Of a stretch of DNA of 29,041 nt, positions 708 to 28,749 are shown one piece after another; the stretch's first letter is position 1; every line of letters begins with the position of its first letter. The notes under the pieces were generated by a model. That model saw only the letters and a program-made list of their open reading frames with translations. It did no database searches and was not told where the DNA came from. The translations under genes were made by a program, and so were the position numbers. The stretch is from Thermodesulfobacteriota bacterium (lineage in GTDB: Bacteria; Desulfobacterota_D; UBA1144; Nemesobacterales; JAZGCJ01): the NCBI GenBank assembly GCA_036476895.1, contig JAZGCJ010000206.1:1-29041 (forward strand). The letters are read 5' to 3'.

Positions 708-1141
708 TCATATATGTTAAATCAGATGAGAGGTTAATGTTTATTACTCCAATACTCATAGATACCATAACAAAGAAAGAATATAACGTATCGAAGATTA
801 CTCACAGTGATCCTCGTGCTGGCCTTAATTCTATAAGCATTACGTTAGAATGGCCTGATCCTCTGACCTGGAAGAAGGAAAGTAAAAAGGGTAGAATCTA
901 CCGATTGAAGGATAAAGATTCAAAGAAGTTTGATGAGTTCGTTCAATTGGTAGGTCATTCAGGATTACCCAATGGGTTGAGTAGTTATTTTCAGGTGGTA
1001 AATAATCTTATCGCAATGGAGCAAGCACATAAATATGGTAAAAAGAATCGGAAGGTTTTATATACACAAAAGAAAAGGGCTAAAAAATCCATACGAAATA
1101 AGAGACGAAGCAAAACAGAAAGTTCTGTGGAGAGGACATGA
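704..1141 (+). CDS. hypothetical protein with strongly basic C-terminus (KKNRKVLYTQKKRAKKSIRNKRRSK)
   Basis: ATGA coupling with the upstream gene; lysine/arginine-rich tail suggests nucleic-acid binding. Confidence 0.55.
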   Translation: MIIYVKSDERLMFITPILIDTITKKEYNVSKITHSDPRAGLNSISITLEWPDPLTWKKESKKGRIYRLKDKDSKKFDEFVQLVGHSGLPNGLSSYFQVVNNLIAMEQAHKYGKKNRKVLYTQKKRAKKSIRNKRRSKTESSVERT

Positions 1142-1340
1142 TCTTGAACGGGCGACAGAGGTTCTTAATGCCGTTCATAGGGATTTAACAAAGAGGCAGG
1201 CGAATGATCCACAAGTTTTGATATATGAACATATGAATGGGATAAGAAAATTGTCAAAGAAAAAGCTAAGGAAGTTGACAATCAAAGCATATAACAATTT
1301 GGAGGCAATCGATAAACTAGACGATTGGGGATTACTATAA
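1035..1340 (+). CDS. small protein of the C-terminal NNLEAID-tag family (…KAYNNLEAIDKLDDWGLL)
   Basis: ORF ends with the conserved module. The start is ambiguous: ATG at 1035 overlaps the upstream gene by about 100 nt; an alternative TTG at 1143 follows a GGAGAGGA RBS. Confidence 0.5.
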   Translation: MVKRIGRFYIHKRKGLKNPYEIRDEAKQKVLWRGHDLERATEVLNAVHRDLTKRQANDPQVLIYEHMNGIRKLSKKKLRKLTIKAYNNLEAIDKLDDWGLL

Positions 1341-1738
1341 TGGATGCGATGATTGATTTAAAGACTCGGAAACTGTATTACGTTCAAGCAGACTTTACTG
1401 CTGGTCAAGAAAAAGATTGGTTGAATATAAAATTAATTGGCATACCTAGTGAGCCTGGAAAAACTCCTTCGATGGATTTACTTTTAGGGCATCCATGTGT
1501 GGTGAAATTAGATGGCTATAACCATCATTATCATGTCGATAATCCATTATATGAGCAATCCAGTAATGGGCAAATGTTGTTTTATGGAGTGATGCTGGAT
1601 AAGTTATCATTATTAACCGGAACAGTTTTACGACTTGTTCCAGCATCTAATTTAGAACTGATGGCAGCATTGCATGGAGAAATATCAGAAAAGATTGAAG
1701 CATTCAAAGAATATGAAAAGGAAGCACAAATGCCATGA
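1340..1738 (+). CDS. hypothetical protein (~132 aa)
   Basis: TAATG stop/start overlap with the previous gene; an in-frame ATG at 1325 is also possible. Confidence 0.55.
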   Translation: MDAMIDLKTRKLYYVQADFTAGQEKDWLNIKLIGIPSEPGKTPSMDLLLGHPCVVKLDGYNHHYHVDNPLYEQSSNGQMLFYGVMLDKLSLLTGTVLRLVPASNLELMAALHGEISEKIEAFKEYEKEAQMP

Positions 1739-2229
1739 GAATAACATTAAAGGGTAAAGGAAAAGAATTAGAAGTAAGAACTGTACTGGATGGTGTGGGG
1801 GTGAGTATCTTTGGAACTGAAGCTTGGTTATATGGTAAAAATAAAACTATTCTACCATATCTTATGCATTATATACAAGGATATATTACTAAGGATGAAT
1901 TGAGTAATGTTTTGATTCATCATTATGGTTTAGAGAATTTGCACGTCACATCATTAATGGGAACAATAGATGAGCACGAACAAGACTGGAAAAAGTGGGC
2001 AAAAAATCCTCATCTCTGGTATGCTTACTATCATAAGGATATTGATGACCAAACGAAAGAGGTAACAATACGTCCAGCACAGGAAGATGATATGCCTCAA
2101 AACTATTCATCAGATTTAGAATCAGAGGATAAATTTTCAATGTACAAAAAAATGTTACAAGAATCACAGGAAACAAACAGAAATCTTGCAAGCATTCAAA
2201 GCAAATTGCAGACTTGGAGTCCAAGATGA
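1735..2229 (+). CDS. hypothetical protein (164 aa)
   Basis: ATGA overlap with the upstream stop; long ORF. Confidence 0.6.
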   Translation: MRITLKGKGKELEVRTVLDGVGVSIFGTEAWLYGKNKTILPYLMHYIQGYITKDELSNVLIHHYGLENLHVTSLMGTIDEHEQDWKKWAKNPHLWYAYYHKDIDDQTKEVTIRPAQEDDMPQNYSSDLESEDKFSMYKKMLQESQETNRNLASIQSKLQTWSPR

Positions 2230-2615
2230 GTGATAGACTAACATGTTGGGAAGGATTAACAATTTGTCGGTGTACGGCAAGTCAGGGCGGTTCAATTGCT
2301 CCTAATTCATGCGAACCAGAAGGACATATCGGTGTGATTTTAATGGATTGGTCGCCATTTCGTCCCACACAAACACCAAAATCTGTTACCTCTAAAGATA
2401 AAAAGATGGATGCATTCAGTTGTCAGTGTACTGACGAAGCTAAGGTTCTTCGGAACATCCATAATAAACTGGAAAGGATGTATTGGTACAGTAAAACGAC
2501 ACAGGAAGAAGTTGAGCAGGTTAAAAAAGTTCTTATCGAAGTCTGGTGGTTGGATAATTTGAAGCTGGTAGAAATCTTTGAGGCATACGATTTAAACGTG
2601 GAGATTAAAAAATGA
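2226..2615 (+). CDS. Cys-rich hypothetical protein with degenerate C-terminal tag (…WWLDNLKLVEIFEAYDL…)
   Basis: ATGA overlap at 2226; several Cys/His (CWEG…CRC…C…C…CQC) suggest metal binding. Confidence 0.55.
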   Translation: MSDRLTCWEGLTICRCTASQGGSIAPNSCEPEGHIGVILMDWSPFRPTQTPKSVTSKDKKMDAFSCQCTDEAKVLRNIHNKLERMYWYSKTTQEEVEQVKKVLIEVWWLDNLKLVEIFEAYDLNVEIKK

Positions 2616-3172
2616 TGTACTTTACATCAGATACACACTTCGATCATTTCAATATCATCCGGTACTGTAATCGTCCATTCAAAACAACTGAAGAAATGAA
2701 TGAGGCTATAATTAAGAATTGGAATGAGAGGATAAAGTCGAACGATACGGTCTATCACCTTGGAGACTTTGCGTTTGCTGGGAAAGAACGAATGGCAGAG
2801 ATTGGAGCAAGGCTCAACGGTAAGAAGTATTTGAAGATGGGGAATCATGACAAAGGACGGAAGCGATTGCTGGGAGCAGGATTCAAGTCTATAATACGGC
2901 CTGAATCTCAAACTGTGATGAGTTTGAGTGGAATTCATGTTAGGTTGTCACATTATCCCTATCGATATAAGTTTGAAGACGGGCAACAAAGAGATTTTCC
3001 CGCAGCACCAGAAGATGAGGGAATGATATTGTTATGTGGTCATGTGCATGAGAAGTGGAAGCTGAAGAACCGGATGCTAAATGTCGGTGTGGATGTGTGG
3101 GATTTCAAACCAGTCTCAGAAGATGAGATTATAGATTACATTCAAAAGAATATCTTAAAGGGGAAAAAATGA
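2612..3172 (+). CDS. calcineurin-like metallophosphoesterase (MPP superfamily)
   Basis: Motifs D-x-H (SDTHFDH), GD (HLGDFAF), GNHD and GHVH in canonical order and spacing. Confidence 0.8.
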   Translation: MMYFTSDTHFDHFNIIRYCNRPFKTTEEMNEAIIKNWNERIKSNDTVYHLGDFAFAGKERMAEIGARLNGKKYLKMGNHDKGRKRLLGAGFKSIIRPESQTVMSLSGIHVRLSHYPYRYKFEDGQQRDFPAAPEDEGMILLCGHVHEKWKLKNRMLNVGVDVWDFKPVSEDEIIDYIQKNILKGKK

Positions 3173-3444
3173 AACGAATACAGGTAACTACGAGAATGGA
3201 TGAAGCAGTCCTAAAGATGGTTGATGGAAACGTAGGAGCTACAACTGTGGTAGGACAGATCATGAAGAAGCTCCCACAAGATTGGATTATTCAATTAGCG
3301 TTTCTAGACGACCAAGAAATCTATGGTCCTGACATTTGGATTTGTTACAAGAACGTATGTGATTATGATCTTGATAAATTTATAGACGAGAATAAACACA
3401 ATAAGCTTAAAGGTTTGTTAGCGGAGTATAAGAAGCAGAAATAA
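3169..3444 (+). CDS. hypothetical protein (91 aa)
   Basis: ATGA coupling; GGGGAAAAAATG RBS. Confidence 0.6.
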   Translation: MKRIQVTTRMDEAVLKMVDGNVGATTVVGQIMKKLPQDWIIQLAFLDDQEIYGPDIWICYKNVCDYDLDKFIDENKHNKLKGLLAEYKKQK

Positions 3445-3474
3445 GCAGTAAATACAACTAAGGAGAAGGTAATA

Positions 3475-3675
3475 ATGAAGGGTACAGTAAAGTGGTTCAA
3501 CAAAAGTAAAGGATACGGGTTCATTACCAAAGAAGGCGGAGGCGATGTATTTTTACATTTCTCTGCAATTCAAGGTGACGGATACAAAGAAGTCCGAGAA
3601 GGTGAAGAAGTGGAGTTCGATATAGAGACAGGAGAGAAAGGCGAGAAAGCAACAAACGTAAAAAGACAGTCATAA
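3475..3675 (+). CDS. cspA: cold-shock protein, CspA family (CSD/OB-fold, RNP1/RNP2 motifs KGYGFI / VFLHFS)
   Basis: [17 protein letters not shown]…DVFLHFSAI… is near-canonical CspA; AAGGAGAAGG RBS. Confidence 0.9.
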
Positions 3676-3980
3676 GTTATCAACACGTATCAGTAGTTAA
3701 TACGGTAGCATAAGTTACTGTTGTGTTTGTATTACAGCCCCTAGTCGCATTAAGGGAGGAATTACAAGTACTATGGTGGGTAACGTCACAATCATGCTAT
3801 TTGTATAGTAGAGTAGAAGCAAGGCTGTATTATACTACTAATGCTATAGCATAAGTTTACGCACTTAATGTGTCATAACTGATACATTGGAGTAATTCAT
3901 GCGATAGGGAAACTATGTTGCATACTAGACAATTGTCTGGAAAGGTAGCCAACTTCCCGAAAATTTTGTATTATATAAGT
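3671..3980. promoter_or_regulatory. 330-nt non-coding region with iteron-like repeats and an extended -10 promoter in front of the AAA+ gene
   Basis: 11-mer TAGCATAAGTT at 3706-3716 and 3847-3857 plus GTCATAAGTT at 3669-3678; TGTATTATA (TG-n-TATTAT) at about 3967-3976, roughly 35 nt before the ATG. Confidence 0.4.
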
Positions 3981-4010
3981 GGGACTAACTAAAAAAAAAC
4001 TGGAGGCAGT

Positions 4011-5399
4011 ATGAAATTAGATTCGAAACGAAATAAGGTGAAGATGAAAGACTTAACCAAAGACGACTTAATCGATATAGAAAGGTGGGGATTTTGGCAT
4101 AGGTCATATCAATCACATTTCTTTCAGAACTTCTTAGACGTGAGACATGTGGAGGAGGTTGACTTCAGTTCTCATGTGGCACCCCATGCGGAAGGATTAT
4201 CAATTCGATTTATCCTTGAAGAATTCTTTAAGACGAAAAAGATCAAGGTTGAAAAGATAGTCAACATCGGTAACGATAGTGATTATGCCCCAAGAGTCTC
4301 AAACATTGAATATGAGAATGGAAAGTTTCGTAGTTGCTTGTTAATTGGGCAGTACATGTTGGATATTAATAAAGAGAAATATCTTTTATCGGTGGATACA
4401 TTATCTCAGGGGTTCATGGACTTTGTTTTCGTTGCACGAAAAGAAGCAAAGATTAAGGCGAAAGACCTAACAACGGACTTGACCACCTATGCTTCTTCTC
4501 ATAATTATCTGAAAGGCAAGAAGATTGATGGAGACTTAACGCTGATTGATTTGAAACGAAAGTATGGGTGGGATGATTTAATCTTAGATAAGTACACAAA
4601 TAAAGAATTACAGACTAATCTTATGAATCTGATTGATAATGTAGAAGTGTATGAGAAGAATAATCTTCCTCTCAAAAGAGGATTGATTATATCAGGAGAG
4701 CCAGGAACAGGAAAGAGTTTACTCGGAAAGATTCTGTGTCACAAGACTGACTGGACATTCATATGGGTGACACCGAAGAATTTTCATGATATTGAAAGTG
4801 TATCGAACATCATGAAAACGGCACGCATGTTAGGACCCACCATCTTATTTCTCGAAGACATTGATTTGTATGGTAAACATAGAGACCAGAATGCATTGGC
4901 TTCTTTGTTGGGGGAACTTATGAATCAGCTAGATGGAATCGAGGATAATAATTATGTCGTGACAATTGCTACGACAAATAATCAAGATGCCTTAGAGAAA
5001 GCGTTAATCAATAGACCTGGCAGGTTTGATAAGGTTATTAGATTTAACAGCCCGACGAATAAGTGCCGAGAACAAATGTTCAAAACTTTCATTGGTCATT
5101 TACGAATGGATGCGGATATTGATATGGAAGAATTGATAGACCGGACGGATAGATTGACAGGGGCACAGGTTAAAGAGGTTGTAAATCAAGCTGTTCTGCA
5201 AGCCATTGATTTTAAGTCATATGATGAGAACAAGATTCTAACGCTAAAGAAAAAGCATTTCGAGATTGCATTAAATCAGACCCGTAATAAAGACTTTAAG
5301 GCTGCGGTAGGGTTTGGGCTTGGGATAAATGGAAATGGACAAGATAATGCTGAAGTACAACCAACATATACTGAACCACCAATGGAGACGGGACCGTAA
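4011..5399 (+). CDS. AAA+ ATPase (classical AAA clade) with an unassigned 230-aa N-terminal domain
   Basis: Walker A GEPGTGKS, Walker B ILFLEDID, second region of homology TTNNQDALEKALINRPGRFD, C-terminal helical lid; GGAGG RBS. Confidence 0.9.
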   Translation: MKLDSKRNKVKMKDLTKDDLIDIERWGFWHRSYQSHFFQNFLDVRHVEEVDFSSHVAPHAEGLSIRFILEEFFKTKKIKVEKIVNIGNDSDYAPRVSNIEYENGKFRSCLLIGQYMLDINKEKYLLSVDTLSQGFMDFVFVARKEAKIKAKDLTTDLTTYASSHNYLKGKKIDGDLTLIDLKRKYGWDDLILDKYTNKELQTNLMNLIDNVEVYEKNNLPLKRGLIISGEPGTGKSLLGKILCHKTDWTFIWVTPKNFHDIESVSNIMKTARMLGPTILFLEDIDLYGKHRDQNALASLLGELMNQLDGIEDNNYVVTIATTNNQDALEKALINRPGRFDKVIRFNSPTNKCREQMFKTFIGHLRMDADIDMEELIDRTDRLTGAQVKEVVNQAVLQAIDFKSYDENKILTLKKKHFEIALNQTRNKDFKAAVGFGLGINGNGQDNAEVQPTYTEPPMETGP

Positions 5400-5548
5400 T
5401 GGCCCAAACACCACGACACGTAGATCAAGATACTTTAGATAAAATGAATAAAGAGTGGTACCATAAAGGTTGGTTGAATGGCCTTATAATTGGTGCTGCG
5501 ATTGCAACCATTATTGCTCTTGGTATAGTAATGGTGGCGATACTCTAA
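5399..5548 (+). CDS. small membrane protein (49 aa, one TM helix LIIGAAIATIIALGIVMVAIL)
   Basis: TAATG overlap with the AAA+ stop; absent from the ORF track only because it is under 60 aa. Confidence 0.4.
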   Translation: MAQTPRHVDQDTLDKMNKEWYHKGWLNGLIIGAAIATIIALGIVMVAIL

Positions 5549-5552
5549 GAAG

Positions 5553-5753
5553 ATGAGAATGAAACACACATTAATCGCATTGTTATTGTTATTCACAGCA
5601 GTTGTTCGCATTCCAATGAAAGGTACACACACGTACAAAGATATTGTGGAAGTGCATGTGTTTCCTAATGCGTATCATTATCGATTAACATTGACGGATG
5701 GACGTACAGTCTATGTTCCTATGTTGTGGACAATCATTGAAGAAAACAAATGA
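5553..5753 (+). CDS. small protein with N-terminal signal/TM segment (MRMKHTLIALLLLFTAVV)
   Basis: ORF with hydrophobic N-terminus; ATGA overlap with the next gene. Confidence 0.5.
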   Translation: MRMKHTLIALLLLFTAVVRIPMKGTHTYKDIVEVHVFPNAYHYRLTLTDGRTVYVPMLWTIIEENK

Positions 5754-5968
5754 GTGAGAAGATAGGATTTACAGAACAGTTCAAAATTGAGGAGATTGAA
5801 TATTTCAATCTTCAGGTTCAACAACCTCCCAAAATTTGTGTTAAATGTGGTGTTAATTTAAGCATAATTGATGGATGGATTGATATCAAAGGTACTGGTT
5901 TCTGTGGAGAGTGTGTTAAAAAAGTTTTCATGATCAATACAGACGGAGGAAAAGATGCGAACAGCTAA
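5750..5968 (+). CDS. zinc-ribbon small protein (CVKCG…CGEC)
   Basis: Two CxxC pairs about 25 aa apart. Confidence 0.55.
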   Translation: MSEKIGFTEQFKIEEIEYFNLQVQQPPKICVKCGVNLSIIDGWIDIKGTGFCGECVKKVFMINTDGGKDANS

Positions 5969-7686: not shown

Positions 7687-8381
7687 GCGAAGAGAATAAA
7701 GAAAAGAAAGAAAAGAATTGGGCAACCAAGTTAGCTGAAGATGAGGCTAAGAAAGAGGCAGATGCGGTACCAAACTGGAAGCGTGTAGTAAATGGTATTG
7801 GAAAGGTAGTTAATACAATAACGACTCAGATTAATAATGAGTTACAAAAGAAACAACAGTTGAAAGCTCTAAGACGAGACCAAGCTATAGGTTTGTTAAA
7901 GCCGACGAATCCACCCTCACCAGAACAAATCTTTAGAAAGGAAGGGGCAGGATACGATCCTGAGAATCCTATGAAGCCAGTTCAAGATGGAAATATAAAT
8001 GTTGGGAATGGTGGTAACACTATTCGATTTCAAACAGGGAATATACCAAGATTTGACATAGATGAAGAGACAGGATTCTATCGTAATGCAACGAAGGAAG
8101 GTTTTATTAAGCGACCAGCAAAGCGGATAAAAATCAAGAAGATTAGAGGTGATACAATAATAAACACTGGCTTCGATAAAGATGTTAAAGACATGGTAGG
8201 TCCTGCTGATGGAAAACTCAAAGAGGTTAAACTGAATGAGCACTATTACCAGGTGAATGTTAAATGCTTCAATTGTCAGGAAACGTATACGTTTGGGATT
8301 CCAAGAGGTACAATGGCTCAAGGGTTTCTGGCTAAACAGCCATGTAAGAAGTGTGGTGTTAAATACTTGAGAAAATACTAG
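7683..8381 (+). CDS. hypothetical protein with C-terminal zinc ribbon (CFNCQ…CKKCG)
   Basis: 232-aa ORF; ATGA coupling; TAG stop. Confidence 0.6.
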   Translation: MSEENKEKKEKNWATKLAEDEAKKEADAVPNWKRVVNGIGKVVNTITTQINNELQKKQQLKALRRDQAIGLLKPTNPPSPEQIFRKEGAGYDPENPMKPVQDGNINVGNGGNTIRFQTGNIPRFDIDEETGFYRNATKEGFIKRPAKRIKIKKIRGDTIINTGFDKDVKDMVGPADGKLKEVKLNEHYYQVNVKCFNCQETYTFGIPRGTMAQGFLAKQPCKKCGVKYLRKY

Positions 8382-8389
8382 GAGAAAGG

Positions 8390-8686
8390 ATGAACAACTT
8401 CTATAAATTAGCAACATTAGTAAAAAGTAAACAACAAAAGATTAAACCTACAGGATATCCTAAGATTGAACCCTTAAAGACTTTTTGCAACACGTGTGGC
8501 TCTCCGATGTTGAAAAAAACATTTATTCGGTTCAAAGGATATAGTACGATATCGGGGAAAGCTCATTATAAAGAAGTAAGTCAAGATATATGTTCGTTGA
8601 CTAGGGTAACTTTTTTTAAGCTACCTTTCATTTTAGCTGATCGGAAAGTGTTTGGATATGCTAACGGACATGATGATTATTTATGA
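8390..8686 (+). CDS. hypothetical protein (98 aa)
   Basis: GGAGAAAGG RBS; stop overlaps the next start. Confidence 0.5.
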   Translation: MNNFYKLATLVKSKQQKIKPTGYPKIEPLKTFCNTCGSPMLKKTFIRFKGYSTISGKAHYKEVSQDICSLTRVTFFKLPFILADRKVFGYANGHDDYL

Positions 8687-9033
8687 GATTAAAGAAACAT
8701 CCAAAGATCATAGTCAAAACAATTAACAAAGGATTTCAAAAAGATATCAAGGCTACGTTTGATTTTAATGATGGGATGATACCAAAAGCTCAGGATATTG
8801 TATCATTAGGTGGAGCTACTAAGAAATGGATTGAATTTGCAAAGTGGAAAAAGAAACCAGAGATGACTCGCAAAGATGGTGAGACGTTTATAAAAGCATG
8901 GAAGAATGGATATGTATGTTATGAGGGAAGTAAGAGAAGATGGTACAAGAGTACAATTAAAAAACATCTCTTGAATGAAATGATAGATAATCTTGAAGCT
9001 ATAGATTTATTGAGAGAGAATGATTTGTTATGA
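8683..9033 (+). CDS. NNLEAID-tag family protein (…KKHLLNEMIDNLEAIDLLRENDLL)
   Basis: Conserved C-terminal module; first of three tandem family members. Confidence 0.6.
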   Translation: MRLKKHPKIIVKTINKGFQKDIKATFDFNDGMIPKAQDIVSLGGATKKWIEFAKWKKKPEMTRKDGETFIKAWKNGYVCYEGSKRRWYKSTIKKHLLNEMIDNLEAIDLLRENDLL

Positions 9034-9320
9034 AGAAACTATCAACAACGGATTTAGTAAAGTCCATAACGGTACTCCGCTCAACCGCAGTTCGAAAAGG
9101 TGATATAGTGCTGTTAAGTAATGGTACATCGTGTATTATTACAGGTGATGGAATGACACGAAAACAAATCAAGACTTATTTATCCATGATGAAAAAGGAT
9201 TTAGATAGGAAACGATCTTATGTGGTTCCTAAGAATGTGAGAAAGTATGTTATTAAACACGCAGCAAATAATTTAGACGCAATTGACTTATTGGAGAAAT
9301 ATGGATTCTTACAAATTTAA
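9030..9320 (+). CDS. NNLEAID-tag family protein (…RKYVIKHAANNLDAIDLLEKYGFLQI)
   Basis: Conserved C-terminal module; ATGA coupling. Confidence 0.6.
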   Translation: MKKLSTTDLVKSITVLRSTAVRKGDIVLLSNGTSCIITGDGMTRKQIKTYLSMMKKDLDRKRSYVVPKNVRKYVIKHAANNLDAIDLLEKYGFLQI

Positions 9321-9717
9321 TAACAACACGATGATTTATATTAATGGTCTCTTACAGTTGGAAGGTAAGACAAACGATTACATGATTTATGATGGGATGG
9401 TACTATTTACATCTCAATTGAACGAAAATGATGTGGTTCAAAAAGTAACTATAGGTGGGAAGATAACTATGAATAAGGGTGGAAAATATGGTTCTCTATT
9501 GAAAGAAACTTTTAAAGGCTCAGAGTTTATGAGTAACCAACTAGAATCAATCGTTAAGAACTATGCTCGGTATCGACAGTTTTATTCTCCACAACAAATA
9601 AAGGATATGATTATTAAATTTGGGGTAAACAATTTGAAAATCATTGATACGCTAAAGCGTATAAATTTACTTTATACGCCTAAGCGTATAAAACGTAAGA
9701 GAGCGAAAACACGTTGA
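9283..9717 (+). CDS. NNLEAID-tag family protein (…IKFGVNNLKIIDTLKRINLL) with basic tail
   Basis: Conserved module; the true start may be the ATG at 9331. Confidence 0.5.
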   Translation: MTYWRNMDSYKFNNNTMIYINGLLQLEGKTNDYMIYDGMVLFTSQLNENDVVQKVTIGGKITMNKGGKYGSLLKETFKGSEFMSNQLESIVKNYARYRQFYSPQQIKDMIIKFGVNNLKIIDTLKRINLLYTPKRIKRKRAKTR

Positions 9718-13642: not shown

Positions 13643-14542
13643 ATGCCGTTCCTACTAGCGACGATAGCATTAATCGTAGGCTTGGGACTCAAGTATGGAT
13701 TGAAGAGAGGGTTTGATGGAAAAGCCTTCTCTCGTGACTTGGTTCTATTTGGGTTTATTGCCTTCGGTGTAGCTGGTGTCATTAAAGCAATCACAATCGT
13801 GGATGCGGGACACCGAGTAGTAGTGTTTGATAGAATATCAGGTGTTAAACCGGATGCCTTGGGAGAAGGATTTCATCTCATTATTCCAGGTATTCAAGAT
13901 GCATTCGCATTTGATGTTCGAACACAGAAAGTAAACATTAAAGAAAATGCAGCGTCAAAAGATATGCAAGATGTTACAACCGAGCTTGCAATTCAATATC
14001 ATCCAGTCGCATCAGCGATGCCAATCTTATATCAACAGTTTGGTATTGGATATGTTGATAAGATCGTTCCACCTGCTGTTCAAGAATCATTGAAAGCGGT
14101 TACGGCCCTTTATACGGCTGAGGAACTTATCACGAGACGTGCTGAGGTTAAAGTTGCATTACACACAGCCTTGAAGTTAAAATTAGCTGAATCAAATCTA
14201 ATGTTGGTAGATGTGTTTATTACCGACTTCAAGTTCTCCAGTGCGTTTGCAAAGGCTATTGAGAACAAGCAGGTTCAGGAGCAAAAAGCTCTGGAAGCTC
14301 AGAGAAAATTGGAAGAAGTTAAATTCCAAGCTGATCAGAAGATTGCTCAAGCTAAAGCTGAAGCTGAATCTCTTAGACTTCAAAAGTCACAAATCACTCC
14401 GAATCTATTGAAACTTCGAGAAATCGAAGTTAGAGCTAAAGCCATTGAGAAATGGAATGGTGTTCAACCACGAGTTGTTATTTCCGGTCAGGGTGGAAGT
14501 GGACTCTTGTTGAATCTTGGTGGATTAGGTACAGGAAAATAA
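13643..14542 (+). CDS. SPFH/band-7 domain membrane protein (prohibitin/HflK/C-like)
   Basis: N-terminal TM segments, band-7 core (GHRVVVFDR…, …LIIPGIQDAF…DVRTQKV…), then Ala/Glu/Gln/Lys-rich coiled coil (QEQKALEAQRKLEE…AQAKAEAE) typical of prohibitins. Confidence 0.9.
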   Translation: MPFLLATIALIVGLGLKYGLKRGFDGKAFSRDLVLFGFIAFGVAGVIKAITIVDAGHRVVVFDRISGVKPDALGEGFHLIIPGIQDAFAFDVRTQKVNIKENAASKDMQDVTTELAIQYHPVASAMPILYQQFGIGYVDKIVPPAVQESLKAVTALYTAEELITRRAEVKVALHTALKLKLAESNLMLVDVFITDFKFSSAFAKAIENKQVQEQKALEAQRKLEEVKFQADQKIAQAKAEAESLRLQKSQITPNLLKLREIEVRAKAIEKWNGVQPRVVISGQGGSGLLLNLGGLGTGK

Positions 14543-16290: not shown

Positions 16291-16422
16291 ATGGTAGCAA
16301 TCGCAGTTCACATCATATTCGGTTTGATGTTGTTGTTTGCAATGAAGTCGGAAGTCAAAGCACCAGAACAACCGTCAGACCCAGTACAAGTTGAGCAATT
16401 AAATGAAAAAACTTTGCAATGA
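16291..16422 (+). CDS. small TM protein (43 aa)
   Basis: AGGGAGAG RBS before the ATG at 16291; MVAIAVHIIFGLMLLFAM hydrophobic segment. Confidence 0.35.
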   Translation: MVAIAVHIIFGLMLLFAMKSEVKAPEQPSDPVQVEQLNEKTLQ

Positions 16423-16921
16423 GTGTGGTAAAGATAAAGAGCTAAAAGATTTTCCAAATCATATAGATGGTAAATTTGGAGTTACGAAAAAATGTAAAAT
16501 TTGTACCAGAATATATAAAAAAATCTATAGAAGTCAGCCTCATATAAAGAAACAAATAAAAGATTACAATACTGCTAATAGAAAAAAAAGAAATACATAT
16601 TATAGAGAATGGAATAAAAATCCAAAAAGAAAAGAATGGATGAGAAACTATAATCGTCAGCATAAATTAAAAAAGAATTATAACTTAACGTTAGAGGACT
16701 TTAATAACATGTTAAAGAAACAACAAAATTCTTGTGCCATATGCAATAATGTATTTAAGAGTGGTGCAAGATATATTCATGTAGATCATTGTCATAAAAC
16801 AAATAAAGTTCGTGGGTTACTGTGTCCTTATTGTAATGTTGGAATTGGTAATTTTTTTGACAAACAACATTTATTAAACAAAGCAATTAAATATTTAGAT
16901 AAATCTCAAAGAGGAGTTTAA
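16403..16921 (+). CDS. HNH endonuclease, Endonuclease VII family, with N-terminal Cys-rich/basic domain
   Basis: CAICNN…HVDHCHKTNKVRGLLCPYCNVGIG matches the EndoVII signature (C-x2-C…H-x-D-H-x-H…RGLLC-x2-CN); gene body is markedly AT-rich relative to its neighbours. Confidence 0.85.
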   Translation: MKKLCNECGKDKELKDFPNHIDGKFGVTKKCKICTRIYKKIYRSQPHIKKQIKDYNTANRKKRNTYYREWNKNPKRKEWMRNYNRQHKLKKNYNLTLEDFNNMLKKQQNSCAICNNVFKSGARYIHVDHCHKTNKVRGLLCPYCNVGIGNFFDKQHLLNKAIKYLDKSQRGV

Positions 16922-16922
16922 T

Positions 16923-17540
16923 ATGAAGATCCGCCCATATATTAGTGTGGATGTTGAATCGACTGGAATCGATGTTAACAATGACAAGATTCTTCAGTTG
17001 GCTATGGTATTTGATGATGGGGTGTCTTCGCTTGACAGCTTACATACGGTATCCTTTCTTGTTAATCCTGAATCGGAAGAGTTTCATGGAAGAATACAGC
17101 CTGTTGCCTTGAGTATGAATGCTTGGATTTTTGATAGTATTGCGGGGAAAACAAAATCTAAGTATCCAGTTTATGAACCAGCAGAGGCGAGAAAGATATT
17201 CAATGCAGAGATACGAGACTTCTTCTATAAGGTTCTAAATAAAGATGCTCGAACCAAAGAAGATAAAACAAAAAAGATCATGTTTGCAGGAAAGAATCTG
17301 CAAGGCTTCGATCTTTTATTGATGAAAAGTAACGGGTACTTTACAAGTGAGAATCAGAAGTATAGAGGAACACGAGCACTGGATGTTGGACCTCTTTATT
17401 TTCCTGAGTTTGGATATGTTCCTTGTTTGGGAGAAATCAATAAAATAACTCAAGGAACCAATGAGGTGAGTCATGATGCCTTGGATGATGCGTTTGATGT
17501 GGTCATGGCAGTACGACATAAAGCGGGGATGTTTACCTAA
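16923..17540 (+). CDS. DEDDh 3'-5' exonuclease (DnaQ/oligoribonuclease-like)
   Basis: Exo I ISVDVESTG, Exo II-like region, Exo III H-x4-D (SHDALDDA); AGGAG RBS. Confidence 0.8.
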   Translation: MKIRPYISVDVESTGIDVNNDKILQLAMVFDDGVSSLDSLHTVSFLVNPESEEFHGRIQPVALSMNAWIFDSIAGKTKSKYPVYEPAEARKIFNAEIRDFFYKVLNKDARTKEDKTKKIMFAGKNLQGFDLLLMKSNGYFTSENQKYRGTRALDVGPLYFPEFGYVPCLGEINKITQGTNEVSHDALDDAFDVVMAVRHKAGMFT

Positions 17541-18249: not shown

Positions 18250-18310
18250 ACAAATTGATGGAAAAGTCTTATAACATAAGTAGGTGTAGTGACAACAGAT
18301 TTGCGGACAA

Positions 18311-18482
18311 AGGAAGTTCCTATAAAACTTCACTAATGGAAAAAATACTTCCCGTCCCTCTAATTTAGGTAAAGGGAGTTCCTATAACTATTTAAAGGTA
18401 GACCGCCTTCGGGCGGTCTGATATTACTCCCCACCAATTTTTAGGCAGAAAGAGTTCCTATAAAATAAGCCCTTCGGGGCTT
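18311..18482 (+). promoter_or_regulatory. three direct copies of a 17-nt motif AAAGrGAGTTCCTATAA, two followed by GC hairpins with UUCG tetraloops
   Basis: Copies end at 18327, 18388 and 18465. Hairpins AGACCGCC-TTCG-GGCGGTCT at 18400-18419 and AAGCCC-TTCG-GGGCTT at 18467-18482 have no U-tract. They sit 70-220 nt upstream of the 608-aa gene. Confidence 0.5.
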
Positions 18483-18533
18483 CTACGAAAATACTCTTCG
18501 CCTTATTTTTAAATCTAATATCGGGAGAATCAA

Positions 18534-20360
18534 ATGAAAACATTAAAATTGTTCAATGCAGTTGTTGAGAAGAAATCAGATAAGAAACATTTTGTGTCTG
18601 AAGATGGATATGTTATTGAATCGGGGGCACTTTGGGCTAAGACCCGAATTGTTAATTACTACAAGAAAGAGGCATTGAACGGTAACGACCTGAATAAGAC
18701 TTTCCATAAGTCATGGAAAAAGATTAAAGATAGTACTCGTGGAGAATTACTTGTTCATCAGATCCTTCATTATTTGACAACTTACGGTACTGGTTTTCAA
18801 ATGGAAGCTTACATTCCTAATGAGATTGTTAAACTTCCTAAAACAAAGATTGTTTTCAAAGTGATCAAAGCATACACCAAAGAAGAATTAATTAACAAAG
18901 CTTTGAGAATGTTGAAATCAGGGATTGCTCTGAAAGAAGAAACAGTCAATGATTTGTTGTCTGTTCTTGTGGATGATCTTGATTATAAATTTACAGGTGA
19001 TGAGGGGATTAAAAATAAAGAAGCTGTCGTAAAGATTGCTGATCTTTATGGTGTTATTCCTAATGACTTCATGGGCTTCTTCCGTTACATTCTTTACAGA
19101 GCCACTGAATCAACCTTGATCATTAAGAACAAACGAACCATTGAAACTGTTCAAAAGAGTTCATACAATCCTGCTGCCCAATTTAAGAAATTTGGCTTAG
19201 CTAAAGTAGCAGAACATTTCAATAGATTTAAGCCTTTATTCTTGGCATTTAAATCTAAGTGTCCAAAAGTTATAAATAAAATCTCGAAGCTTTCGAAAAC
19301 CAATCATAAACCAATGGTTCAGAATGCTTTGAATCTTGTGACTCAGCGAAAGCTTACTGTTGATGATAATCACTGGCTTGCTAACGCAACTCTTTTTGCT
19401 TTGTTTAAAGCATTGAATGCTGTTCATCTTCGTTTGAATGGGCAGAATACGTTTCTTTATAAGATTCGTAATGGAAAGTCTTACGCTAAAGAGAGTAAAG
19501 TTACTTCTGTCAATGAGCATAATTATAACTACTTAATCAAATACTTGAAGGGTAGATTTTCATTCAATGGTAAGAAGATTTTTATTCCTGAAGATGTTGT
19601 GTATGCCCTTCCTACTTCGGAGAAAATGTTTGTTGGGAATATTCCTATGGGTTCTAAGTTCTACGGTAACAAGTTGGCTGTTGGTATTTATTGGAAGAAT
19701 TCGGGAGGAGCACGAGACCTTGATTTGTCAAGTATCAATGTTGACGGTAAGGTAGGTTGGAATAGAAGTTATTATGATGAAGACCAAAACCTTATGTTCT
19801 CAGGAGATATTACAAATGCTCCTGATGGGGCTGTTGAATATCTTCACGCCAAGAAAGGTGTAGCACATCCTACAATTGTAATGAACAATGTGTACAGTTT
19901 CTCAGGATCTGATTGGGGTGAGGATACTACAGGTAAAACTTGCAAGTATAAGATCATCATTGGTCGTGGTGATAGAATTGACAGAAAGTTTATGATGAAT
20001 CCTAATAATTTGTTCATGGAAACTAATGTTGAATCAGTTCAAGAACAATCAATTATTGGCTTGTTCTTACAGGAAGGTAAAAGACAAGCATTTGTTGTTC
20101 TTAACTTCGGAGCAGGACAAGCAAGAGTTTCTGGAGGCAATGAGCATTCTGCCACTGCTCGTGTTGCATTGACTCAGGAATGGAGTAATTCATTGTCATT
20201 CAATACGATTGTGGAAGCACTAGGTGCGAAGATTGTTCAGAAAAGTAAAGACGCTGATATTGATCTTTCTTTAAATACGTTAGAAAGGGATTCGTTTATT
20301 AAAATCTTTGAATCAAAGGGAAGTAACACTACCAAACAAAAAGTATTGGTAAAAGTGTAG
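18534..20360 (+). CDS. 608-aa protein with C-terminal TerD-like domain
   Basis: GGGAGAATCAAATG RBS. Residues ~375-560 (KLAVGIYW…ARDLDLSSINVDGKV…LMFSGDITNAPDGAVEYL…PTIVMNNVYSF…IIGLFLQEGKRQAFVVLNFGAGQ) follow the TerD block order (GlgW…DlDlSa…DGkV…hSGDn…vfvv…lfgely…AvGqG) by eye; N-terminal 370 aa unassigned. Confidence 0.8.
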   Translation: MKTLKLFNAVVEKKSDKKHFVSEDGYVIESGALWAKTRIVNYYKKEALNGNDLNKTFHKSWKKIKDSTRGELLVHQILHYLTTYGTGFQMEAYIPNEIVKLPKTKIVFKVIKAYTKEELINKALRMLKSGIALKEETVNDLLSVLVDDLDYKFTGDEGIKNKEAVVKIADLYGVIPNDFMGFFRYILYRATESTLIIKNKRTIETVQKSSYNPAAQFKKFGLAKVAEHFNRFKPLFLAFKSKCPKVINKISKLSKTNHKPMVQNALNLVTQRKLTVDDNHWLANATLFALFKALNAVHLRLNGQNTFLYKIRNGKSYAKESKVTSVNEHNYNYLIKYLKGRFSFNGKKIFIPEDVVYALPTSEKMFVGNIPMGSKFYGNKLAVGIYWKNSGGARDLDLSSINVDGKVGWNRSYYDEDQNLMFSGDITNAPDGAVEYLHAKKGVAHPTIVMNNVYSFSGSDWGEDTTGKTCKYKIIIGRGDRIDRKFMMNPNNLFMETNVESVQEQSIIGLFLQEGKRQAFVVLNFGAGQARVSGGNEHSATARVALTQEWSNSLSFNTIVEALGAKIVQKSKDADIDLSLNTLERDSFIKIFESKGSNTTKQKVLVKV

Positions 20361-20383
20361 AAGTACAAAATTCAGTAATAAAG

Positions 20384-20420
20384 AATCCTGATTCATTGTC
20401 TGATGGGTCAGGATTTTTTT
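20384..20420 (+). terminator. rho-independent terminator
   Basis: AATCCTGA…TCAGGATT 8-bp stem followed by TTTTTTT, directly after the stop of the 608-aa gene. Confidence 0.7.
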
Positions 20421-20434
20421 ATGGGAGGCATAAC

Positions 20435-21872: not shown

Positions 21873-22210
21873 TACGGAGTAGTACCTTTGCGAGAAGGCC
21901 ACGGACGGGGTAGGAGGAGTAAATTCCTATATGATTGTGAAACTCATTCTTTCTTCTCACAAATTTGATAGCATAGTTTAATTTGGAAAAACACCTCTGA
22001 ACATCGGTTGATGCGGAGGAGATGGTGGTTCGAGTCCACTTGGTATCTGGATGGGTGCAAACCCGCATTCGGTTGGTCCCCGTTAAAAGACCAAGATTTT
22101 GTGGAGGTGTGGTGTACACACAGGAGTGCCGACTAGTAGGCGTGGGTGAGAACCTACTTTATGATCTCCAACTCTGGAATAGACGGTAAGAATCCGTCCC
22201 ACAGAACAAT
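21873..22210 (+). ncRNA. candidate structured non-coding RNA (unclassified)
   Basis: No ORF over 40 codons on either strand. GGGT-GCAA-ACCC GNRA hairpin (22052-22063); tRNA T-arm-like GGTGG-TTCGAGT-CCACT (22024-22040); GACGG-TAAGAAT-CCGTC (22182-22198); long-range complements TTCTCAC (21954)/GTGAGAA (22147) and GGACGGGG (21903)/CCCCGT (22078); TTCCTATA motif at 21924. Confidence 0.3.
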
Positions 22211-27263: not shown

Positions 27264-27336
27264 GCCCATGTAACTCAGATGGTAGAGTGCCTGTTTGAAG
27301 CACAGGTGGTCGCAAGCTCGAACCTTGCCGTGGGCA
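27264..27336 (+). tRNA. tRNA-Phe (anticodon GAA)
   Basis: Manual fold: acceptor GCCCATG/CGTGGGC, D-stem ACTC/GAGT, anticodon stem CCTGT/ACAGG, loop TTGAAGC, T-stem GCAAG/CTTGC; no encoded CCA. Confidence 0.7.
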
Positions 27337-27337
27337 C

Positions 27338-27411
27338 GCCGAATTAGTACAATGGTAGTACACGTCATTGGTAATGATGAGATATGAGTTCAATTCTCGT
27401 ATTCGGCTCCA
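27338..27411 (+). tRNA. tRNA with anticodon GGU (Thr)
   Basis: Acceptor GCCGAAT/ATTCGGC, D GTAC/GTAC, anticodon stem CGTCA/TGATG, loop TTGGTAA, T-loop TTCAATT, encoded CCA. Confidence 0.65.
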
Positions 27412-27412
27412 T

Positions 27413-27486
27413 GCCACCATAGCTCAATAGTAGAGCAATGCTTTTGTAAAGCGAAGACGAGGGAGCGTTACCTTCTGGTGGCTCCA
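27413..27486 (+). tRNA. atypical tRNA, anticodon UGU (Thr) as folded
   Basis: Perfect acceptor GCCACCA/TGGTGGC and D-arm GCTC/GAGC. Anticodon stem has one mismatch (ATGCT/AGCGA); loop TTTGTAA; T-loop AGCGTTA is non-canonical; encoded CCA. Confidence 0.45.
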
Positions 27487-27491
27487 GATTT

Positions 27492-27803
27492 ATGTTCAAC
27501 AAAATAAAGCGTTGGTATATAGACTTTTGTAAAAGACATTCAACGGCTGTGGGGATTGTCGAGTTAGAAGATTATATCATTCCTTCAGGGCATTCAGTTT
27601 TTACAAATTTGCATGGTTGGTGGACTCCACCAAATGAAGTTTTAGAGTTTTGGGCAGCAGGATGCAAATATCGATACCTCAGTGATAATTGGTGGTTTAT
27701 TGACTTAGTGTTAGCATCTAAAGAAGCGGATACGGATATTGAAAAGATAAAACAGTCGTATGAGAAAGCAATTCAAGATTTTTATCGAATCAATGCTTTG
27801 TAA
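27492..27803 (+). CDS. hypothetical protein (103 aa), Trp-rich
   Basis: ATG 6 nt after the tRNA CCA; stop abuts the next tRNA. Confidence 0.55.
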   Translation: MFNKIKRWYIDFCKRHSTAVGIVELEDYIIPSGHSVFTNLHGWWTPPNEVLEFWAAGCKYRYLSDNWWFIDLVLASKEADTDIEKIKQSYEKAIQDFYRINAL

Positions 27804-27877
27804 GCCTCAATAGTTTAATGGAAGAATTCTCGTTTCGTAATCGAGGGATGCCAGTCCGATTCTGGCTTGAGGCTCCA
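27804..27877 (+). tRNA. tRNA, anticodon CGU (Thr) as folded
   Basis: Acceptor GCCTCAA/TTGAGGC, T-arm GCCAG-TCCGATT-CTGGC, anticodon stem CTCGT/TCGAG with U:U at 31:39, loop TTCGTAA; weak D-stem; encoded CCA. Confidence 0.5.
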
Positions 27878-27970
27878 GATTTTCGTCGCCGGAGACCCTT
27901 TTCACCCTTTCGAGGTCTTGTGGACTTCAAAGGCGAAGGGTTGTCAGAAGTCTGACGGTGACACTAATTT

Positions 27971-28312
27971 ATGAATCGATTCGAAAAAGTCCGAGACTTA
28001 GTTAAAGATATAGCAGCTAGGAAATGTAACAAAATTGACGAATACAATAATTTTGTTACAACTTTTCCGACAATTATCAGCATATATGTTGAACATATGA
28101 AATTCTGTAAAGAAAAAGAAAGTCCAATCTTCACTCATCATACTGCAAGAATATCTACGAAACAAGCAAATGAGTTAAGAGAGGAGTGGAGAGATGAATT
28201 TATCAAAACGTGTAAATATCCACACTATAATTTAAACAATTTAGAAATTATTGAACTGCACGATTTATTAGTAAAGTTAAAATTTTTAGAATCAACAAAT
28301 TTGGGGCTGTAG
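27971..28312 (+). CDS. NNLEAID-tag family protein (…KYPHYNLNNLEIIELHDLLVKLKFL…)
   Basis: Conserved module; TAG stop overlaps the first bases of tRNA-Ala. Confidence 0.55.
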   Translation: MNRFEKVRDLVKDIAARKCNKIDEYNNFVTTFPTIISIYVEHMKFCKEKESPIFTHHTARISTKQANELREEWRDEFIKTCKYPHYNLNNLEIIELHDLLVKLKFLESTNLGL

Positions 28313-28379
28313 CTCAATTAGGGAGAGCACTCCGCTTGCAACGGAAAGGTTGTGGGTTCGATTCCCACTAGCTCCACCA
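28303..28379 (+). tRNA. tRNA-Ala (anticodon UGC) with G3:U70
   Basis: Acceptor GGGGCTG/TAGCTCC gives the G3:U70 alanine identity pair; anticodon loop CTTGCAA; T-arm GTGGG-TTCGATT-CCCAC; encoded CCA. Confidence 0.8.
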
Positions 28380-28384
28380 ATTTT

Positions 28385-28534
28385 ATGAAAAGACGAACAC
28401 TTGAAATCATCTTATGGATTATTTTACCCTTCTGGATGATAGCAGCAGATTATGTTGCTGTAGATGGATTTCATACGAAACTTATTATGAAGAAAGTTTC
28501 TCAAATTTATGAGACAATTAAAAGTAGGAGATAA
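28385..28534 (+). CDS. small membrane protein (49 aa)
   Basis: ATG 6 nt after the tRNA CCA; IILWIILPFWMIAADYVAV. Confidence 0.35.
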   Translation: MKRRTLEIILWIILPFWMIAADYVAVDGFHTKLIMKKVSQIYETIKSRR

Positions 28535-28675
28535 AGTTTATTCGCTATATTTCAATCAAGAGATCACAATCGTGAAGATTGTAGATGATAATAACTGGGA
28601 GTTTGAGATCCAAGGTCATATTGAGAAAGCAAAAACTCCGCTATCATATTTTGAACGAAAAGCGAAATAATTTCT

Positions 28676-28749
28676 GGTTGTATGGTGTAGTGGCAGCACG
28701 TTAGCCTGTCAAGCTAAAAGTGGGGGTCCAATTCCCCCTATGACCGCCA
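28676..28749 (+). tRNA. tRNA-Asp (anticodon GUC)
   Basis: Acceptor GGTTGTA/TATGACC, D GTGT/GCAC, anticodon stem TTAGC/GCTAA, loop CTGTCAA, T-arm GGGGG-TCCAATT-CCCCC, encoded CCA. Confidence 0.75.

Follow-up and report, generated by a model that had tools for sequence, protein, structure and literature searches.

The closest described counterparts of the locus considered here are the Ro60 protein and its Y RNAs. In Salmonella, Rsr (Ro60), YrlA (a tRNA-like Y RNA) and the RNA ligase RtcB share one operon, rsr-yrlBA-rtcBA (PMC4201824; PMC7790460). [quoted passage not shown] Our locus consists of a gene and the structured RNAs upstream of it, in a stretch of 29,041 nucleotides (nt) deposited under Thermodesulfobacteriota bacterium (positions 1 to 29,041 of contig JAZGCJ010000206.1, assembly GCA_036476895.1); this whole stretch is called the window. 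The open reading frame (ORF) of the gene, 18534..20360 on the plus strand, starts with ATG and encodes 608 residues, exactly as a first-pass annotation of the window had located it. SPFH/Band-7-centred RNA-repair systems with a tRNA-like RNA are reportedly covered in the 2016 survey of Burroughs and Aravind, and they provide a second point of comparison.

From comparative sequence analysis, we propose that the product of the gene is the protein component of a ribonucleoprotein (RNP) not characterised before, that the upstream RNAs are its cognate small RNAs, and that the particle has a role in tRNA or RNA damage. We give this reading a probability of about 0.55. It is built on an RNA module whose coupling to the gene is near-exclusive and two-way, on the neighbourhoods in which the pair occurs, and on the architecture of the protein.

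The RNA module

What had been described as a triple upstream motif is three copies, spanning 18302-18508, of a structured RNA module of ~60 nt with two covarying helices, P1 and P2. The count of three stands; the view of the motif as a sign of strong, regulated expression gives way to that of structured RNA. Copy 1 (18302..18362, plus strand) has P1 GGAC/GUCC and P2 GGAAGU/ACUUCC, which enclose UCCUAUA and a 24-nt loop (cmsearch 61.1 bits, E = 5.7e-14). In copy 2 (18368..18435, plus strand; 32.3 bits, E = 1.1e-6) P1 is GGU/ACC and P2 GGGAGU/ACUCCC, and a UUCG-capped hairpin (AGACCGCC/GGCGGUCU) is inserted in the variable loop. Copy 3 (18440..18508, plus strand; 45.5 bits, E = 5.1e-10), with P1 AGGC/GCCU and P2 AAGAGU/ACUCUU, likewise carries a UUCG-capped hairpin (AAGCCC/GGGCUU) in its variable loop; its P1 ends 29 nt 5′ of the start codon, and a U-run comes after it. 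Unconstrained minimum-free-energy folding recovers the helices of all three.

The same core is found 2-5 times, at a spacing of 55-80 nt, upstream of homologs of the gene in unrelated bacteria and phages. The flanking arms of each core copy form two complementary pairs, the sequence of which changes while complementarity stays, and at 300 of 322 TCCTAT sites upstream of homologs at least nine of ten pairs can form in these arms. An alignment of 38 diverse units (A2) has 96% of its cells paired, vs. 72% when shuffled and 36-54% when the register is slid. Since the A2 units were selected for good pairing, the percentage paired is inflated; the covariation and the slide controls are independent of the selection. 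In A2, double-sided changes number 128, against 41±5 in shuffled and 7-24 in slid alignments, and 10 of the 12 pairs have compensatory changes. Aligned by covariance model, 123 distinct units give 280 double-sided changes (90±18 shuffled; at most 48 slid).

By contrast with the arms, the unpaired core is essentially invariant. It consists of an A-A-A linker that leads from P1 into P2, a bulged C on the return from P2 to P1, and an internal loop with UCCUAU (then usually A) on its 5′ side and U on its 3′ side, next to which P2 is closed by invariant G-C and U-A pairs. Sequence and length (10-90 nt) vary freely in the distal loop, which often has an inserted hairpin, as in copies 2 and 3 of the window. 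Rfam 15 holds no family that matches the module: at E ≤ 10 the best match of the upstream element is cyano-S1, at E = 0.097 and 20.7 bits vs. a gathering score of 39.9. At the gathering threshold, 11 related loci gave tRNAs and one Flavo-1, and nothing else.

Several other roles for the repeats were considered and rejected. A general phage promoter is ruled out by the confinement of the core to this locus: GTTCCTATAA occurs exactly three times in the 29-kb window, each time in the 284-nt spacer 5′ of the gene. A sigma-70 scan of 18250-18533 found no promoter, and the -7 box TAnnTTTG of a conserved Bacteroidota promoter does not occur at a consistent place in front of the RNA array. Kissing between the loops of neighbouring units (UUGGA vs. 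UUCCA) was not borne out, the longest complementary run having a mean of 4.28 vs. 4.47 on shuffling the partners and 4.36 on shuffling the sequences. Nor do the loops look like guides to co-located tRNAs (complementarity 6.50 vs. 6.48 for shuffled loops).

Coupling of the RNAs to the gene and its neighbours

From the protein side we collected 157 related loci, 82 of them bacterial (48 Chryseobacterium and 34 others). The covariance model has 154 matches in 0.92 Mb of phage loci and the window, and 213 in 1.03 Mb of bacterial loci, in total 367 in 1.95 Mb. The module is strand-specific: all 367 matches are on the strand of the gene. Almost all are directly upstream or downstream of the homolog, and the bacterial ones all fall within ~400 nt upstream of the gene. 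Searching by sequence only (nhmmer) gave 268 matches, all on the plus strand, with a single match away from the gene; units are upstream in 97 of 99 loci with a homolog of at least 50% identity. Units still stand beside homologs as distant as ~28% identity.

The coupling is also seen when the search starts from the RNA. One variant pattern of the module found three viral contigs, with the gene adjoining the match in each. Another found 61 metagenomic loci, in 55 of which the gene is present (55 of 58 testable), and all 64 metagenomic module instances lie on its strand. Six loci were gene-less, three of them with less than 90 nt left to inspect. Three metagenomic contigs of 1.0-1.5 kb contain an exact module match followed by 900-1,380 nt in which no family gene is detectable; in these, the array may be distant from the gene, or modules may now and then exist on their own. 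The opposite was observed in two phage contigs with homologs of 59% and 56% identity, where the gene has no adjacent module; in the first, it abuts the preceding coding sequence (CDS) across an AT-rich spacer of ~60 nt.

The number and place of the units vary. There are 1 to 5 per locus, and in the related loci the last one ends 16-30 nt from the start codon. In nine loci, units are downstream of the gene or on both sides of it. One of these has five units in an ORF-free 3′ region of 1.1 kb and none upstream. Another is the cyanophage S-CRM01 (NC_015569), in which four module copies, at 5512-5878 and 7824-7881 of the locus, flank the homolog g174 inside a tRNA cluster. A minus-strand CDS annotated in this phage, g173c (locus 5788-5934), overlaps two of the copies and is probably a spurious ORF call.

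The module can also be part of a larger RNA. In Chryseobacterium and several phages the units are preceded by a tRNA-like element of 109-126 nt, which is found by the Rfam tRNA model and missed by ARAGORN. It has acceptor, D and T arms, and in 41 loci a circularly permuted module occupies the anticodon position. The permuted order is P2-3′, C, P1 closed by a small loop, A(A/G)A(U/C), P2-5′ and UCCU, with the bulged C and the A-rich linker at the topologically correct places. In other Flavobacteriaceae, a normal (unpermuted) unit bears a T-arm mimic in its variable loop: in five loci the variable loop of the middle upstream unit contains such a mimic (CUGGUUCGAUUCCAG), and another small hairpin comes after it. 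Beside the permuted chimera, the module is in this way joined with tRNA-like features in a second form. As the module can sit at either end of different scaffolds, a protein-binding handle fits it better than an aptamer with an expression platform. The chimera was not seen in the window, where a tRNA-like element (21967-22048, plus strand; Rfam tRNA model 42 bits, not called by ARAGORN) has no module. An 18-nt hairpin-bearing insert replaces its anticodon loop, so that it is not decodable.

The gene had been called stand-alone. This is not quite so: it has a conserved context, made up of its own RNAs and RNA-repair genes in bacteria, and of tRNA arrays in phages. All flanking ORFs of the 157 loci were clustered and the clusters then named by Pfam. 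The conserved neighbours include RtcB RNA ligase (E = 7e-35), the RlaP "RNA repair pathway" nucleotidyltransferase (E = 6e-19) and the T4-type RNA ligase Rnl1 (E = 2e-12); an HTH-WYL-WCX regulator, an R2K ATP-grasp protein and HopJ were also matched. RtcB occurs in 54 of the 82 bacterial loci and is co-oriented with the gene in all 54. The median gap from its end to the start of the gene is 428 nt and is filled by the RNAs, which gives a typical bacterial layout of WYL(-) HopJ(-) / RtcB(+), ~430 nt of RNA genes, gene(+). In Chryseobacterium, with 47 of 48 loci, the linkage is at its strongest. A ligase (RtcB or Rnl1) or RlaP is also present in 10 phage loci and in 14 of the 34 other bacterial loci, and these 14 represent six or more named genera (Flavobacterium, Aquimarina, Tenacibaculum, Kordia, Marivirga and Soonwooa). 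A HopJ-family gene stands beside the WYL regulator in 41 loci, and an R2K-clade ATP-grasp gene is found in 20 (e.g., locus L088, 3629-3961 and 9662-10393).

The 157 loci contain 400 tRNA genes, every one of them in the orientation of the gene, and their density in phage loci is 3.3 per 10 kb. In eight loci from marine Flavobacteriaceae chromosomes, 6-19 different tRNA genes, co-oriented, abut the gene and its RNAs. These arrays resemble phage-type tRNA arrays or mobile "tRNA array units". A link to NAD salvage was dropped for want of recurrence in the neighbour clustering; single instances are the phage Phass-1, with genes for nicotinamidase, PRPP synthase and NAMPT a short way upstream of its homolog (893-3995 of its locus), and Zobellia, with PnuC and a NadR-like gene in the like position (7854-9471).

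The main rival to an RNP is that the modules are a tandem cis-regulatory leader (riboswitch or attenuator), by which a ligand or a cellular RNA signal (a metabolite or the ends of damaged RNA, for instance) would control read-through or translation, with no protein binding. The 5′ position in 97 of 99 close loci and the short distance from the last unit to the start codon would suit a leader, yet in several lineages the units are solely or also downstream, up to the case of five 3′ and none 5′. An invariant unpaired core is what a ligand pocket would have, and tandem aptamers have a precedent; the permuted module within a tRNA-like scaffold, however, makes no sense as an expression platform. 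The U-run that usually follows P1 might allow attenuation at the upstream copies, but the stems are AU-rich and would be weak terminators, and the copy number changes from 1 to 5. Furthermore, the bacterial RNAs lie between RtcB and the gene, as Y RNAs lie between rsr and rtcB. We consider a pure leader unlikely, at something like one chance in five or six. Binding at the last module, which ends 29 nt before the start codon, could feed back on translation; such autoregulation would be compatible with an RNP and with a leader alike.

The protein and the rest of the window

The gene is preceded by a Shine-Dalgarno-like GGGAGA (18523..18528, plus strand), read directly from the sequence 5 nt 5′ of the ATG. 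The protein (isoelectric point, pI, 9.6) starts with an alpha-helical domain (residues 1-345; 18534..19568), which is strongly basic, with 60 K+R vs. 31 D+E and a pI of 9.8. This domain has no significant structural neighbour and no solved structural relative, and Ro60/TROVE is not among its matches. A linker with an invariant PTSEK motif leads to a beta-sandwich of TerD fold at about residues 375-530 (together 19569..20138). The C-terminal helical tail (residues 536-608; 20139..20357) has a conserved D-[IV]-D-L-S...L-x-K-D motif, and the last 13 residues are disordered. Across relatives of 27-100% identity, the invariant residues are Y80, G85, P95, A132, T137, N161, E163, K233, N248 and R312 in the helical domain, P360, E363, K364 (the PTSEK motif), G368 and P371 after it, and W387, D395, D397, W409, G424, D425, E435 and P490 farther on, all of these but P490 being counted as invariant residues of the sandwich.

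A word-indexed search gave more than 2,357 relatives; the best 120 of these are 58-71% identical, 581-681 residues long, without a Pfam domain and all named "hypothetical". An exhaustive profile search gave 1,541 clusters at 50% identity, 1,058 of them at E ≤ 1e-30, and the two-domain, full-length architecture is common to nearly all. Members are encoded on Bacteroidota chromosomes (Chryseobacterium, Flavobacterium, Tenacibaculum, Aquimarina, Kordia, Pedobacter, Zobellia, Marivirga, Chitinophagales and others) and on many large phage contigs, up to 673 kb. Three cultured or named phages have a homolog: the Synechococcus phages S-CRM01 (g174) and S-CBWM1, and Phass-1. The query has nothing significant in Pfam, NCBIfam, PADLOC or PHROGs, 35 diverse members have nothing in Pfam or PHROGs, and PDB sequences, searched with the query itself and with two profiles, had no meaningful match. 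This is a family of ~1,500 clusters without annotation in Pfam, NCBIfam, PHROGs or PADLOC. No description of the protein family or of its RNA was found in these databases, in Rfam 15, by full-text searches of the literature or in papers on jumbo-phage comparative genomics, release-factor evolution, RlaP, YrlA and the RtcR operon; a mention in the survey of Burroughs and Aravind (2016) is possible.

Such conservation invites the view that the protein is an enzyme that processes, modifies or heals the ends of RNA, with the modules and the chimera as substrates or specificity handles rather than stable partners. Identity is very high (~60% across Bacteroidota and phages), polar residues (N161, E163, K233, N248, R312, E363, K364, D395, D397, D425 and E435) are invariant over the whole range, and RNA-repair systems typically pair ligases with end-modifying enzymes. 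But no catalytic fold or family was matched, and TerD domains are generally known, as for 2KXT, as Ca2+- or ligand-binding modules and not as catalytic ones. An enzyme therefore seems improbable, somewhat more so than a leader.

Nor does the divergence of the family favour modules that lack a specific functional tie to the gene, being generic elements for RNA processing, termination or insulation, or selfish repeats carried along by a mobile gene. Mobile contexts (phages and tRNA arrays), the U-runs after the modules and the variable copy number would agree with this. The core, however, has stayed unchanged while the protein diverged to 28% identity, there are no copies elsewhere in the ~2 Mb of flanks, and scans that start from the RNA return almost solely the neighbourhood of this gene. 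Also, REP or MITE elements would differ from the modules, which have zero minus-strand copies. We think this quite unlikely.

The C-terminal ~190 residues adopt the TerD fold, as the first-pass annotation had suggested, whereas membership of the protein in the TerD family or in a Ter system is not established. The search against Pfam TerD (PF02342) was made: it is matched neither by the query at E ≤ 10 nor, at E ≤ 1, by any of 35 members with identities from 27% to 100%, and a diverse family profile found no TerD chain among PDB sequences at E ≤ 10. In a profile-profile comparison (hhalign) with authentic TerZ, TerA, TerD and TerE sequences from a real ter operon, residues 380-530 align with TerD 21-179 in the expected motif register, at a non-significant E = 0.12 with four sequences on the TerD side. 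The DxDxS motif (D395, D397) and G424-D425 are invariant in the family. The acidic Ca2+-binding loop of TerD, which we take from the work on 2KXT to be of the GDN(R/L)TGEGDGDDE type, is mostly lost and replaced by ITNAPxGAxE (SGDITNAPxGAxE), in which E435 is the sole invariant residue. Thus the acidic Ca-site residues are indeed partly missing: most of the cluster is gone and D395, D397, D425 and E435 are kept.

These kept residues, at positions like those of the TerD Ca site, together with the fold and a related viral protein annotated "putative tellurium resistant like protein", are what would speak for a Ter-type stress protein, i.e., a Ca2+ or metabolite sensor in tellurite- or phage-resistance-like pathways, with the repeats as promoter or operator elements. 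The context has largely refuted this. Beyond the absent Pfam match and the lost GEGDGDDE-type cluster, no ter genes (TerB, TerC, TerY/vWA, PRTase, HAD) are among the conserved neighbours in the 157 loci, which leaves the suggested link to tellurite resistance and nucleoside-like signalling without evidence. The repeats covary as RNA helices and are strand-specific, unlike DNA operators, and the protein is basic (pI 9.6), where classical TerD proteins are generally acidic. We judge a Ter-type role very improbable.

A virion structural (capsid) protein, for which size and isolation alone were arguments, is extremely unlikely: as had been noted, nothing capsid-like is recognisable, the helical domain and TerD sandwich match neither HK97 nor jelly-roll folds, and homologs are chromosomal in many Bacteroidota, in RtcB operons with no phage genes around.

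The gene is followed by a strong intrinsic-terminator-like hairpin (20380..20421, plus strand), as expected from the earlier annotation. It is formed by AAUCCUGA...UCAGGAUU, precedes U7 and has a stability of -20.6 kcal/mol (z = -5.07; 0 of 200 shuffles as stable). Hairpin and T-run sites occur 3′ of 55 of 117 distinct homologs vs. 3 of 117 control windows.

The window has all its ORFs on one strand, is phage-like in character and has a GC content of 32-41%. With genes in a single orientation, numerous small ORFs, endonuclease VII and tRNAs, it looks like a large phage. A deposited entry for the identical protein names it hypothetical and assigns it to a "Thermodesulfobacteriota bacterium" metagenome-assembled genome, on a 78.8-kb contig. 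Given the phage-like window and the closest protein relatives in Bacteroidota and phage contigs, the contig is probably mis-binned.

RNA genes in the window comprise seven tRNAs or tRNA-like elements and one CyVA-1 RNA (27886-27961; Rfam RF02965, 43.4 bits vs. a gathering score of 41.4). Six of the seven form a cluster (Phe, Thr, the Rfam-only 27413-27483, Thr, Ala and Asp) at 27264-28749 on the plus strand, co-oriented with the gene. The tRNA-like element 21967-22048 lies in an ORF-free stretch (21880-22210). A fourth module was considered here and rejected, as TTCCTATA at ~21923 is not significant (9.8 bits, E = 0.6); a partial AAAUUCCUAUAUG at ~21920-21932, just 5′ of the element, gives no significant module match (E = 0.6). 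The GC-rich 160 nt after the element have a weak, sub-threshold match to the FMN riboswitch (E = 0.097).

RtcB is not present in the window. Other plus-strand genes are those for an SPFH/Band-7 protein (13643-14542), 4 kb upstream of the gene, an AAA+ ATPase (4011-5399), a calcineurin-like phosphoesterase (2612-3172), endonuclease VII (16403-16921) and a weak RNase T/DEDD-like exonuclease match (16923-17540). SPFH proteins and phosphoesterases are linked to RNA-repair systems in the literature. None of these five is conserved next to homologs.

A candidate ribonucleoprotein compared with known systems

In the RNP that we propose, each of the three upstream elements would be a cognate small RNA, with a recognition module that stays constant and a distal loop that varies freely, and in circularly permuted form the same module could be set on a tRNA-like RNA at its anticodon end. 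The basic helical domain and the TerD-fold domain would most likely bind the module jointly; what speaks for binding is the charge of the helical domain and the co-inheritance of protein and RNA. In the phage of the window, a single transcript probably comprises the RNAs and the mRNA and stops at the terminator 3′ of the gene. The particle would most likely act in a response to tRNA or RNA damage, as a scaffold or decoy that joins the tRNA-like RNA and repair enzymes; alternatively, it may block anticodon nucleases.

A broader version can be envisaged, namely, a widespread and hitherto unrecognised class of RNPs in Bacteroidota and large phages in which a TerD-fold protein with a new basic helical domain binds a portable, permutable module on tandem mini-RNAs and at the anticodon end of a tRNA mimic. 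The class would be a non-TROVE counterpart of Ro60/Y RNA in RtcB/Rnl1 tRNA repair and, borne by phages along with tRNA arrays, a counter-measure against tRNA-cleaving host defence. This version is tentative, and we would put it slightly below even odds. If it holds, the design of Ro60 and Y RNAs has arisen at least twice from unrelated parts, which argues for an architecture that function demands, as against an accident of history. The module would be a new structured RNA family: its copies number in the hundreds, its core is invariant, and its permutation onto a tRNA scaffold is a rare natural case of circular permutation. The TerD-fold domain, the biochemistry of which is obscure, would gain its first RNA-linked role and a concrete, testable partner. 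The system would also bear on the reason that large phages have tRNA arrays and on how they cope with anticodon-nuclease defences. Cultured systems are at hand in cyanophage S-CRM01 (g174) and in Chryseobacterium, Flavobacterium and Zobellia strains.

As to known proteins, the TerD family (PF02342; TerD/TerE/TerZ/TerA; 2KXT, 2QZ7) has no significant sequence or profile match to this protein, which differs from it in the fused basic helical domain of 345 residues, in being basic overall, in the mostly replaced acidic Ca2+ loop, in lacking a Ter operon context and in its coupling to RNAs. The same layout, a helical N-terminus followed by a TerD-like C-terminus, is found in three phage proteins: A0A8S5LVH0 in BFVD ("putative tellurium resistant like protein"), H6SUA9 of Campylobacter virus IBB35 and A0A291I9M6 of Lactobacillus phage LpeD. 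They align with our protein over the full length by Foldseek (E 1e-18 to 1e-11), but are just 10-15% identical to it, were not recovered by sequence searches and are likewise uncharacterised.

With the SPFH/Band-7 RNA-repair systems, as reportedly described, the locus would share the concept of a non-enzymatic scaffold and a tRNA-like non-coding RNA in ligase-containing neighbourhoods; it differs in that no SPFH gene is among the conserved neighbours of the 157 loci.

The likeness to Ro60 and Y RNA in the Salmonella rsr operon extends further. In both cases a protein of ~550-600 residues has one or more small structured RNAs adjacent to it on the same strand. As in Y RNAs, a conserved helix and bulge module, here the putative protein-binding element, is combined with variable "effector" parts. 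As with YrlA, one partner RNA has a tRNA-like domain with acceptor, D and T arms, here in 41 related loci. RtcB linkage under a dedicated regulator is also common to both, as is occurrence in phages. The parts, on the other hand, are not the same. The protein is not of the TROVE (HEAT-repeat ring) plus vWA type, and the RNA core, AAA / UCCUAU / U / bulged C, differs from the Ro-binding motif and has no match to an Rfam Y RNA. On these grounds the RNP would be a non-homologous analogue of Ro60/Y RNA, carried by phages along with their tRNA arrays. In sum, the concept of a scaffold protein that works with a tRNA-like non-coding RNA in RNA repair is a known one; the parts, as far as we can tell, are new.

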